A stretch of 64,000 bases of DNA, from sequence record PV682947.1; one strand, given 5' to 3'. This document shows positions 38,937 through 45,585 of the stretch, in pieces. This DNA comes from Escherichia phage WPEC4. The stretch's first letter is position 1; each line of letters begins with the position of its first letter. A program made the position numbers and the translations under genes. Under the pieces are notes generated by a model. The model worked only from the letters and a program-made list of their open reading frames with translations, was not told where the DNA came from and searched no databases.

Positions 38937-41900
38937 ATAAGACTCATCAGCATCGTAGAAAGGAGAGATGCGACTTAAGTCAAGACCTTCTTGTAAGAAC
39001 CAGTTAAAATCTTTATGTTACAGGGTGCACCTTTTAATAAATGGGAAGAGGCTGTAGGAGAAGACCCTAGAATTGAAGAAGAATTTGACGAAAACGACAA
39101 GTCCATTTTTAAAAGCAGCTACTGGTGGTCCGAAGAAGCCTGAAATGAGCGTATTTGCTGCAACAACAGATGGAAATTTTAACTGGTTCTTACAAGAAGG
39201 TCTTGACTTAAGTCGCATCTCTCCTTTCTACGATGCTGATGAGTCTTATTTTTTATGAATCTCCCCTAAATACTTTTCTAAGATTTTACGACCCTCGTCG
39301 ATAAGGGCTTGTTCTGTAGTAATTTCCGTTCCTTCCTCCTCAAATTATTAACGAAACCGCATGACTAAATCTTGGTTCAGATATAACCTCTGCTACAGTC
39401 ACATAGTTTTATGAATCTCCCCTAAATACTTTTCTAAGATTTTACGACCCTCGTCGATAAGGGCTTGTTCTGTAGTAATTTCTATTCCTTCCTCCTCAAA
39501 TTATTAACGAAACCGCATGACTAAATCTTGGTTCAGATATAACCTCTGCTACAGTCACATTGTTACAGGGTGCACCTTTTAATAAATGGGAAGAGGCTGT
39601 AGGAGAAGACCCTAGAATTGAAGAAGAATTTGACGAAAATTTTAACTGGTTCTTACAAGAAGGTCTTGACTTAAGTCGCATCTCTCCTTTCTACGATGCT
39701 GATGAGTCTTATTTATGTTACAGGGTGCACCTTTTAATAAATGGGAAGAGGCTGTAGGAGAAGACCCTAGAATTGAAGAAGAATTTGACAAAGATTTTAA
39801 CTGGTTCTTACAAGAAGGTCTTGACTTAAGTCGCATCTCTCCTTTCTACGATGCTGATGAGTCTTATCTGTTGTTGCAGCAAATACGCTCATTTCAGGCT
39901 TCTTCGGACCACCAGTAGCTGCTTTTAAAAATGGACTTGTCATTCTTCATTCTCCTCTTCTGCATTTCTTATATATGGTGAAACACCGTACTCTTTAGCT
40001 ACTTTAACCCAATCGTCCCGCATCTGTTGTTGCAGCAAATACGCTCATTTCAGGCTTCTTCGGACCACCAGTAGCTGCTTTTAAAAATGGACTTGTTATT
40101 TTTCATTCTCCTCTTCTGCATTTCTTATATATGGTGAAACACCGTACTCTTTAGCTACTTTAACCCAATCGTCCGCAATAAGACTCATCAGCATCGTAGA
40201 AAGGAGAGATGCGACTTAAGTCAAGACCTTCTTGTAAGAACCAGTTAAAATTTGTCAGCTTGTTAATCATTGGTGATAAATAGCGTTTACCAACGTAAAA
40301 CAGCACGCCAACTGATGCAACGGCGGTGATCTCATGTAAGGAGGAAGGTCGCGCGGTGTCATAGTAGGTACCTATAATAGCAATAGCGGCAACGGCGGCA
40401 ATATCCCTCTCCTCTCTTGGGGCTTTGCCCCTCCTCCTTGTTATTTTTAACACCCCTCTCCGAAAGGTTAGGGGCTTTTTTCTTTTTGGATAGTTGGCAA
40501 TCCATGCTTTATAGAAGCGAAGCAATGTTGCACTGCTCAACGGAATATTATTTGTCATTTTTGTCTCCTTCATAATCCTGAATTCTATCTAGCACCCATT
40601 GTATACGATGTTTGTTTTTATGGCAAATATGTTTTTTATGCAGGATAGTTGGCAATCCATGCTTTATAGAAGCGAAGCAATGTTGCACTGCTCAACGGAA
40701 TATTATTTGTCATTTTTGTTTTCCTTCATAATCCTGAATTCTATCTAGCACCCATTGTATACGATGTTTGTTTTTATGGCAAATATGTTTTTTATGTTAG
40801 AAAAATGACAAATAATATTCCGTTGAGCAGTGCAACATTGCTTCGCTTCTATAAAGCATGGATTGCCAACTATCCTGTCTCCTTCATAATCCTGAATTCT
40901 ATCTAGCACCCATTGTATACGATGTTTGTTTTTATGGCAAATATGTTTTTTATGTTCCCTCTCCTCTCTTGGGGCTTTGCCCCTCCTCCTTGTTATTTTT
41001 AACACCCCTCTCCGAAAGGTTAGGGGCTTTTTTATTTTTGTCAGCTTGTTAATCATTGGTGATAAATAGCGTTTACCAACGTAAAACAGCACGCCAACTG
41101 ATGCAACGGCGGTGATTTCATGTAAGGAGGAAGGTCGCGCGGTGTCATAGTAGGTACCTATAATAGCAATAGCGGCAACGGCGGCAATATCGGTGTCAGC
41201 TTGTTAATCATTGGTGATAAATAGCGTTTACCAACGTAAAACAGCACGCCAACTGATGCAACGGCGGTGATGGATAGTTGGCAATCCATGCTTTATAGAA
41301 GCGAAGCAATGTTGCACTGCTCAACGGAATATTATTTGTCATTTTTGTTTCCTTCATAATCCTGAATTCTATCTAGCACCCATTGTATACGATGTTTGTT
41401 TTTATGGCAAATATGTTTTTTATGGTCAGCTTGTTAATCATTGGTGATAAATAGCGTTTACCAACGTAAAACAGCACGCCAACTGATGCAACGGCGGCGA
41501 TTTCATGTAAGGAGGAAGGTCGCGCGGTGTCATAGTAGGTACCTATAATAGCAATAGCGGCAACGGCGGCAATATGATTTCATGTAAGGAGGAAGGTCGC
41601 GCGGTGTCATAGTAGGTACCTATAATAGCAATAGCGGCAACGGCGGCAATATCTGTTGTTACAGGGTGCACCTTTTAATAAATGGGAAGAGGCTGTAGGA
41701 GAAGACCCTAGAATTGAAGAAGAATTTGACGAAGATTTTAACTGGTTCTTACAAGAAGGTCTTGACTTAAGTCGCATCTCTCCTTTCTACGATGCTGATG
41801 AGTCTTATATAAGACTCATCAGCATCGTAGAAAGGAGAGATGCGACTTAAGTCAAGACCTTCTTGTAAGAACCAGTTAAAATTTCCGTCAAATTCTTCTT

Positions 41901-44900: not shown

Positions 44901-45585
44901 TAGAAGCGAAGCAATGTTGCACTGCTCAACGGAATATTATTTGTCATTTTTTTTTCCTTCATAATCCTGAATTCTATCTAGCACCCATTGTATACGATGT
45001 TTGTTTTTATGGCAAATATGTTTTTTATGTTTTAACTACAAAATTGCGCATATTTTATCCTCCTCATATCTGATCTTATCACAAAATGATATACAATTGC
45101 AAGCATGAAAAATTTTAACTACAAAATTGCGCATATTTTATCCTCCTCATATCTGATCTTATCACAAAATGATATACAATTGCAAGCATTAAAAAGTTTT
45201 ATGAATCTCCCCTAAATACTTTTCTAAGATTTTACGACCCTCGTCGATAAGGGCTTGTTCTGTAGTAATTTCCCTGTTGTTGCAGCAAATACGCTCATTT
45301 CAGGCTTCTTCGGACCACCAGTAGCTGCTTTTAAAAATGGACTTGTCATTTTTCATTCTCCTCTTCTGCATTTCTTATATATGGTGAAACACCGTACTCT
45401 TTAGCTACTTTAACCCAATCGTCCGCATCTGTTGTTGCAGCAAATACGCTCATTTCAGGCTTCTTCGGACCACCAGTAGCTGCTTTTAAAAATGGACTTG
45501 TCCATCTGTTGTTGCAGCAAATACGCTCATTTCAGGCTTCTTCGGACCACCAGTAGCTGCTTTTAAAAATGGACTTGTCATTGAA
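38937..45585. repeat. Mosaic array of roughly 85 units of ~74-78 bp (about 12 sequence types, both orientations), each copied from a gene-boundary sequence
   Basis: Unit order starts A+ 38937-39010, D+ 39016-39089, E- 39096-39169, A- 39176-39249, F+, M2+, F+, M2+, D+, A-, D+, A-, E+, C+, E+, C+, A+, H-, G- ...; unit types whose source is in this window match 7937-8081, 867-940, 1173-1248, 38863-38936 and 45586-45660. Confidence 0.85.

Follow-up and report, generated by a model that had tools for sequence, protein, structure and literature searches.

The window analysed here is a stretch of 64,000 nucleotides from the sequence record of Escherichia phage WPEC4 (PV682947.1). It derives from an E. 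coli myophage of the Phapecoctavirus type, a genus with genomes of about 150 kb, and its closest normal relatives, phages nieznany, ZCKP1, tuntematon and Mt1B1_P17, are about 94–99% identical to it. At 38936–45582, between two long blocks of phage sequence, lies an array of short recurring segments.

The array and the six loci behind it

Segmentation by 20-mer multiplicity resolves 88 constant cores, each 71–76 bp in length, at 38863–45658. The cores fall into 12 families, named A to L, with 2–12 copies apiece in both orientations, which confirms the mosaic of a dozen sequence types described in the first-pass annotation of this DNA. Their order starts with A B C D B' E F E F C B' C B' D' G D' G B H A' I J K and ends with D' D' E'. 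Between 0 and 12 junction bases separate neighboring cores, and almost all of these junctions are unique. The start-to-start spacing is mostly 77–78 bp, and the boundaries found by self-BLAST across the array recur at 74–83 bp, mainly 77–78 bp. No ORF longer than 137 amino acids crosses the region, in agreement with the annotation's remark that it contains no normal coding sequence. Further copies of the cores are found by BLAST beyond the array, at 866–940, 942–1017, 1019–1094, 1097–1172, 1173–1248, 7945–8018 and 8019–8091, so that the units do recur elsewhere in the window (866–940, 942–1248 and 7945–8091), as had been claimed.

The array is bordered by an interrupted gene on the left and a gene lacking its 5' end on the right, both already recognized as such, and these are ordinary genes cut by the ends of contigs. 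The left one (38823–38935, plus strand) is the 5' part of a small gene homologous to the 207-bp gp031 of tuntematon, which encodes a hypothetical protein. Its native continuation is GATCG followed by unit H', as shown by the A–H' pairs at 43953–44103. The right one (45583–45909, plus strand; placed at 45586 in the first-pass annotation) is the homologue of tuntematon gp223, which starts at 129770. Its start codon is missing, as the contig starts one base past it; the native ATG consists of an A, the last base of F', followed by TG.

Among 126 matching phage records, none covers even a quarter of the array region in one place. Comparison with related phages, which had been proposed as a check, was carried out, and the array is absent from the normal relatives, where six loci are found intact and contiguous. 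BLAST against tuntematon (NC_052660), the reference normal relative for placing the families, and against DIJ07P1 showed that the 12 families are the two halves of these six ordinary, single-copy loci, with a native pair length of 149–154 bp. In tuntematon, the pairs are H|A' (11569–11716), G'|D (42455–42605), L'|I' (98761–98909), C|B' (120971–121122) and F'|E' (129695–129848), while the pair J|K is contiguous in DIJ07P1. The 12 types thus stand as families, but they are not independent, being six pairs that each make up one contiguous native locus.

The relatives have a single copy of each pair and a single allele joining its halves, namely CGATC, CATTC, ATTTTTA, GGAG, CA and CTC. Of the six loci, four coincide with gene boundaries on reading of the sequence (a start codon, an overlap of stop and start in ATGA, a spacer between Shine–Dalgarno sequence and ATG, and the T-run of a terminator), and the other two are inside ORFs; the earlier view that the units come from gene starts and ends therefore holds for four loci only. 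The D'|G site is where a SprT-like gene stops and a TelA-like gene starts. An origin of the cores as 77-mers flanking structural-variant breakpoints of co-assembled phages was considered and rejected, since the relatives have the pairs contiguous and the alleles differ by point changes, without indels.

In the read set, each locus has 2–3 variable bases within at most 7 bp. The patterns between the halves in the window are H[YGATY]A', D'[YRTTY]G, C[RRAR]B', E[YR]F, I[MTTTTTM]L and J[NTY]K. There are 29 haplotypes in total, and each of those present occurs exactly once in the window, a non-redundant set that is unlike a biological repeat array. All four allele combinations are seen at H|A' and at I|L, and seven of eight at C|B', while E|F has three haplotypes only (CA, CG and TA). 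That nearly all combinations are present points to independent events at each position.

Assembly-graph structure at k = 77

The dimensions of the units follow a simple rule. The length of the core plus that of the variable run, v, is 78 at all six loci (76 + 2, 75 + 3, 74 + 4, 73 + 5, 73 + 5 and 71 + 7), and the native pair length is 156 − v. This is the length of a de Bruijn graph edge running from p2 − 77 to p1 + 77 between two nearby variable sites when k = 77. A tiling test was set up on this basis, in which candidate edges start at p − K or p + 1 and end at p − 1 or p + K, where p is a variable position. With K = 77, the whole 6,647 bp from 38936 to 45582 tiles without gap or overlap into 58 pieces of either 78–83 or 149–155 bp, and the tiling still holds when all flank bases are fixed. 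One boundary was moved by 1 bp, at a point where two tilings are equally possible. With K = 70–76 or 78–85, the tiling stops after 1–4 units.

The pieces also behave as edges of a graph. The set checked comprised 64 pieces of the window, four long and 60 short, the latter being the 58 of the array and two more at 941–1172. The shortest is 78 bp, or k + 1, with none below. No 78-mer is common to two pieces and no interior 77-mer is reused. Conversely, 43 of the 45 terminal vertices are common to 2–4 piece ends, the remaining two being cut by the ends of the window, and 36 vertices carry three piece ends, as expected of branching vertices. Before cutting, the window contains 170 repeated 78-mers, all of which straddle joins between pieces and vanish when the sequence is cut at the tiling boundaries.

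A compacted k = 77 de Bruijn graph was then built in silico from the 29 observed haplotypes set within native flanking sequence. Its short unitigs number 60, and all of them are sequence-identical to the observed pieces, one to one; graphs simulated at k = 75, 76, 78 and 79 match none of the 60. The E|F site, with its three haplotypes, is predicted to give edges of 78, 78, 154, 155 and 155 bp, and each of these is present, three in the array and the other two at 941–1172. The asymmetry of the 154- and 155-bp edges stems from the missing fourth haplotype. An additional GTTT allele at J|K was tried and dropped: it is explained by two adjacent single-flank edges, and with it only 9 of 14 J|K pieces were matched, compared with 60 of 60 pieces overall without it.

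By every sequence-level criterion tested, the array is a concatenated set of k = 77 unitigs: 58 complete short unitigs at 38936–45582, in arbitrary order and orientation, with their 77-bp overlaps retained. Tandem cores of one family occur only where two graph edges that share a 77-mer adjoin by chance. The exact tiling and the simulation refute both functional readings offered in the first-pass annotation, a recombination or diversification locus and a decoy or sponge of regulatory sequences. The third suggestion, an assembly or library chimera, was right as to assembly, but the size of the units is that of the k-mer, 77, and not that of a sequencing read.

That closeness of the unit size to a short-read length, remarked on from the letters alone, is what speaks for a chimera made at the bench, in which phage fragments of about 77 bp were ligated or template-switched during library preparation and then assembled faithfully. 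Chimeric ligation is able to join unrelated fragments in either orientation. However, fragment ends would not be expected to fall at exactly p − 77, p + 1, p − 1 and p + 77, nor lengths to depend on the spacing of variable bases so that core plus v is 78, nor the outcome to be a non-redundant set identical to the simulated k = 77 unitigs, and we regard this origin as very improbable. The same sum of 78 and the exact match of the pieces to graph edges led us to reject ligation of fixed physical DNA ends, such as nicks or restriction cuts.

False joins and sibling records

The long blocks of the window are contigs of the same graph. The first (1–940) is the end of a long contig, the reverse of tuntematon from 4904–4259 onward, that stops on the 77-mer before the first variable base of J|K. 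A contig of 6,846 bp (1173–8018) extends from E|F to C|B', and one of 30,917 bp (8019–38935; tuntematon 42527 down to 11647) from D'|G to H|A'. The last (45583–64000) begins on the 77-mer immediately past E|F. Between the first two lie the two additional short pieces, a 78-bp (k + 1) unitig of E|F (941–1018) made up of one variable base, F and one flank base, and a 154-bp E|F unitig (1019–1172) with the native allele CA, TG on the reverse strand, that matches tuntematon 129848–129695 with 98.7% identity. This TG on the reverse strand completes the start ATG of the gene placed at 45583. Several of the source loci in the window lack their native context, and 941–1172 is two further short fragments.

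All of the long blocks begin or end exactly on 77-mers flanking the six sites, and they are permuted and inverted relative to tuntematon. Window positions 1–646 correspond to tuntematon 4904–4259 (reversed), 1173–8021 to 129770 down to 121046 (reversed), 8019–38938 to 42527 down to 11644 (reversed) and 45580–64000 to 129770 up to 148085 (forward). The abutments of the long blocks lie at 940|941, 1172|1173, 8018|8019, 38935|38936 and 45582|45583. The clearest case is 8018|8019, where two long contigs meet directly. In 7945–8091, the left 74 bp come from a gene near 121 kb in tuntematon, and the right 73 bp, from some 78 kb away, are the 3' end of the SprT-like gene near 42.5 kb. The first-pass annotation had given 7937–8081 as the source of two unit types, A and C in its own lettering; the copies are indeed there, but the junction between them is false.

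In SPAdes, 77 is the largest default k for 150-bp reads, and the smallest output contig has k + 1 bases. The array shares with SPAdes-type de Bruijn contigs the minimum of 78 bp, the common ends of exactly 77 bp between neighboring edges, the multi-armed bubbles at heterogeneous sites and the single occurrence of each (k + 1)-mer. It differs in that such short contigs are normally kept separate and discarded, whereas here they are pasted, overlaps included, into the record of one genome.

The array is almost certainly an artefact that arose after assembly, by concatenation of the pieces of a k = 77 de Bruijn graph into a genome record. An assembly with a final k of 77 would have failed to resolve six multi-allelic micro-sites in a genome of about 150 kb. 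Each such site would produce a small, multi-armed bubble, with the long contigs stopping on the flanking 77-mers and the arms put out as separate contigs of 78–83 and 149–155 bp. All edges, long and short, would later have been joined in arbitrary order and orientation without merging of their 77-bp overlaps. The units of about 75 bp would then be shared 77-mer vertices, seen repeatedly, and the variable junctions would be the heterogeneous bases together with a few flank bases. SPAdes contig ends are known to carry artificial overlaps of size k (PMC5923482). The k = 77 graph structure and the false joins to the long segments are shown by the sequence, while the assembler and its version, the person or script behind the concatenation and the cause of the heterogeneity are inferred.

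Might the assembler itself have mis-resolved a path through a tangled graph, a true misassembly with no later concatenation of contigs or edges? Of the 63 pairs of consecutive pieces, 10 are true graph neighbors in register, and long and short pieces are interleaved without sorting by length, as such a path could produce. However, the other 53 joins link non-neighbors, a de Bruijn assembler that writes out a path merges its overlaps of k bases whereas the pieces here keep both of their complete terminal 77-mers, and each edge is used exactly once, which is more like a list than a walk. A misassembly is accordingly unlikely, and later concatenation is the better account.

The pieces in the window are not ordered by length as they are in a SPAdes contigs.fasta file, long and short ones being interleaved. 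Together with the 10 of 63 neighbor joins, this suggests that the pieces came from a listing of edges or of the graph, or from another tool, and not from a contigs file sorted by length. Traversal in graph order may have been involved to some extent, as far as can be judged from the raw count of 10 of 63.

Three other GenBank records, those of WPEC1 (PV659873.1), WPEC2 (PV691511.1) and WPEC6 (PV763039.1), share one source, Thai hospital wastewater with host EC3.18, and are 100.0% identical to the window across the 10 kb compared (46000–56000). The records are 155–161 kb in size, inflated by about 5–11 kb relative to the usual 150 kb or so. A literature search on the WPEC phages gave nothing relevant. 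Arrays of the siblings were examined in partial loci, L001 of WPEC2 and L003 of WPEC1. Both contain the same 12 families with 100% identity, but in another order and context. The WPEC2 array adjoins the TelA-like gene, encloses a 623-bp piece equivalent to window 38313–38935, and has an end that corresponds to window position 34139. In both WPEC1 and WPEC2, the arrays are annotated with rows of 'hypothetical proteins' of 90–230 bp.

The arrays at WPEC2 L001 and WPEC1 L003 also tile best at K = 77, over 786 and 1,094 bp, compared with at most 309 bp at any other K. The tiling is limited by additional broken loci that are absent from the library of pieces taken from the window. Records that are identical over 10 kb and yet permuted point to repeated concatenation of a fragmented assembly and are unlike a set of viable phages. 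WPEC1 and WPEC2 are scrambled concatenations of contigs as well, and WPEC6 very probably is too.

The siblings also bear on the idea of a genuine locus, be it a store of cassettes for recombination and diversification or a decoy made of copied regulatory segments. In its favor, the same unit types are present in three sibling GenBank records, and four of the six source loci are at translation starts or a terminator. Against it, the order differs between siblings that are otherwise sequence-identical over 10 kb, related phage records lack the array, it is exactly at the six sites that flanking genes are cut short and synteny breaks, inspection shows no conserved crossover motif, a constant repeat is lacking, and the boundaries of the pieces depend on an arbitrary software parameter. 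We give this idea next to no credence.

The annotation was correct that the array is not a CRISPR, satellite or shufflon; it has 12 unrelated families and no constant repeat. Like shufflons and other invertase systems, it has segments in both orientations and an order that differs between sibling records, but these segments lack a conserved crossover repeat, copy loci that are 7–56 kb apart in tuntematon coordinates, and have boundaries set by a distance of 77 bp from variable bases. Inspection of the junction bases revealed no common motif, and the junctions are fully explained as native flank or variable bases. The array shares a regular period and phage-derived sequence with CRISPR arrays, except that it has no spacers set between copies of a constant repeat, each of the 12 types recurs, and the period is the k of the assembler. 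From a tandem or satellite repeat it differs in that unrelated families follow one another in mixed order and orientation.

Diversity-generating retroelements (DGRs) likewise have fixed sites at which point variation clusters and alleles occur in many combinations, but there are only 2–3 variable positions per site in the array, the changes are not adenine-specific (C/T, A/G, A/C and G/C/T), and no pair of template and variable repeats is seen. The PeSL cassettes of T4-like phages are dispersed intergenic elements with shared sequence. They resemble the array in being short segments close to promoters or terminators, at the gene boundaries of a large myophage, whereas the array units are unique sequences with no relation to one another, and two of their six loci fall within ORFs.

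Heterogeneity at the six sites and its meaning

The one possible piece of biology left is the cause of the heterogeneity at the six sites. Read on the purine-rich strand, most changes are G-to-A or T-to-C, the exceptions being T-to-G in the T-run of the terminator and G-to-C in the J|K spacer. The start codon ATG is altered to ACG or ATA at two sites. The sibling datasets are heterogeneous at the same sites and have extra alleles, AAAA at C|B' and TG at E|F. Two pattern scans of IMG/VR for natural variation at the sites found one contig each, a number too small for statistics, and both contigs carry the tuntematon allele.

The simplest reading is sequencing error tied to particular sequences and brought out by very high depth. 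At very high coverage, recurrent errors can give rise to false branches in the graph and to fragmentation (PMC5923482). The heterogeneity might instead be real in the virion population, which would point to particular positions near translation starts in a Phapecoctavirus that are hypermutable or under strong selection, but we consider this decidedly improbable.

The array carries no new biology, and the practical value of the result lies in the quality control of public records. The window holds truncated real genes and false gene neighborhoods, and the WPEC1 and WPEC2 records contain dozens of spurious tiny coding sequences. Such records can seed false discoveries of novel loci, distort analyses of synteny and pangenomes, and mislead the genomic safety review of phages that are candidates for therapy. 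The combination of tiling and simulation is a general detector that works from sequence alone, by piece ends at p ± k, unique (k + 1)-mers and a match to simulated unitigs.

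Allelic variation where the long contigs end

The large assembly pieces of the window end at six variable sites, three of which follow positions 940, 8018 and 38935; two others precede 8019 and 45583, and one occupies 1095-1096. The alleles of these sites, as read from the array pieces, amount to 3-7 haplotypes per site and differ at 2-3 positions that span at most 7 bp. Most of the changes are G-to-A or T-to-C on the purine-rich, Shine-Dalgarno-like strand, and two start codons are altered from ATG to ACG or ATA. Relatives carry a single allele at each of the six sites. The heterogeneity may stem from sequence-specific sequencing errors at high read depth or from genuine heteroplasmy.

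A second small “array” is found at window 941-1172, between two long contigs. It consists of two further short graph edges, of 78 bp and 154 bp, at the E|F site, the native locus whose halves are unit families E and F. The native start-codon allele sits on the 154-bp edge.

Comparison with tuntematon

Window 8018|8019 (7945-8091) is a false join, the halves of which lie about 78 kb apart in the normal relative tuntematon (121 kb vs. 42.5 kb). This join accounts for what the first-pass annotation took to be the 3' end of an SprT-like gene plus its downstream flank. Three stretches, 646-866, 17069-18053 and 30270-31799, lack a megablast match of at least 150 bp to tuntematon, and none of them coincides with any unit family. 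Ordinary indels or replacements that set relatives apart probably account for them.

Sibling records

The sibling GenBank records of WPEC1 (PV659873.1), WPEC2 (PV691511.1) and WPEC6 (PV763039.1), 155-161 kb in size, are 100% identical to the window across 10 kb. WPEC1 and WPEC2, the two siblings inspected, contain the same unitig arrays in another order, with many tiny CDSs annotated within them, as well as extra broken loci. The added breaks in the WPEC2 assembly, at 2992-3613 and 7371 of its partial locus L001, correspond to window 38313 and 34139, which are intact in the window, suggesting that the WPEC2 dataset had more heterogeneous or low-coverage sites.
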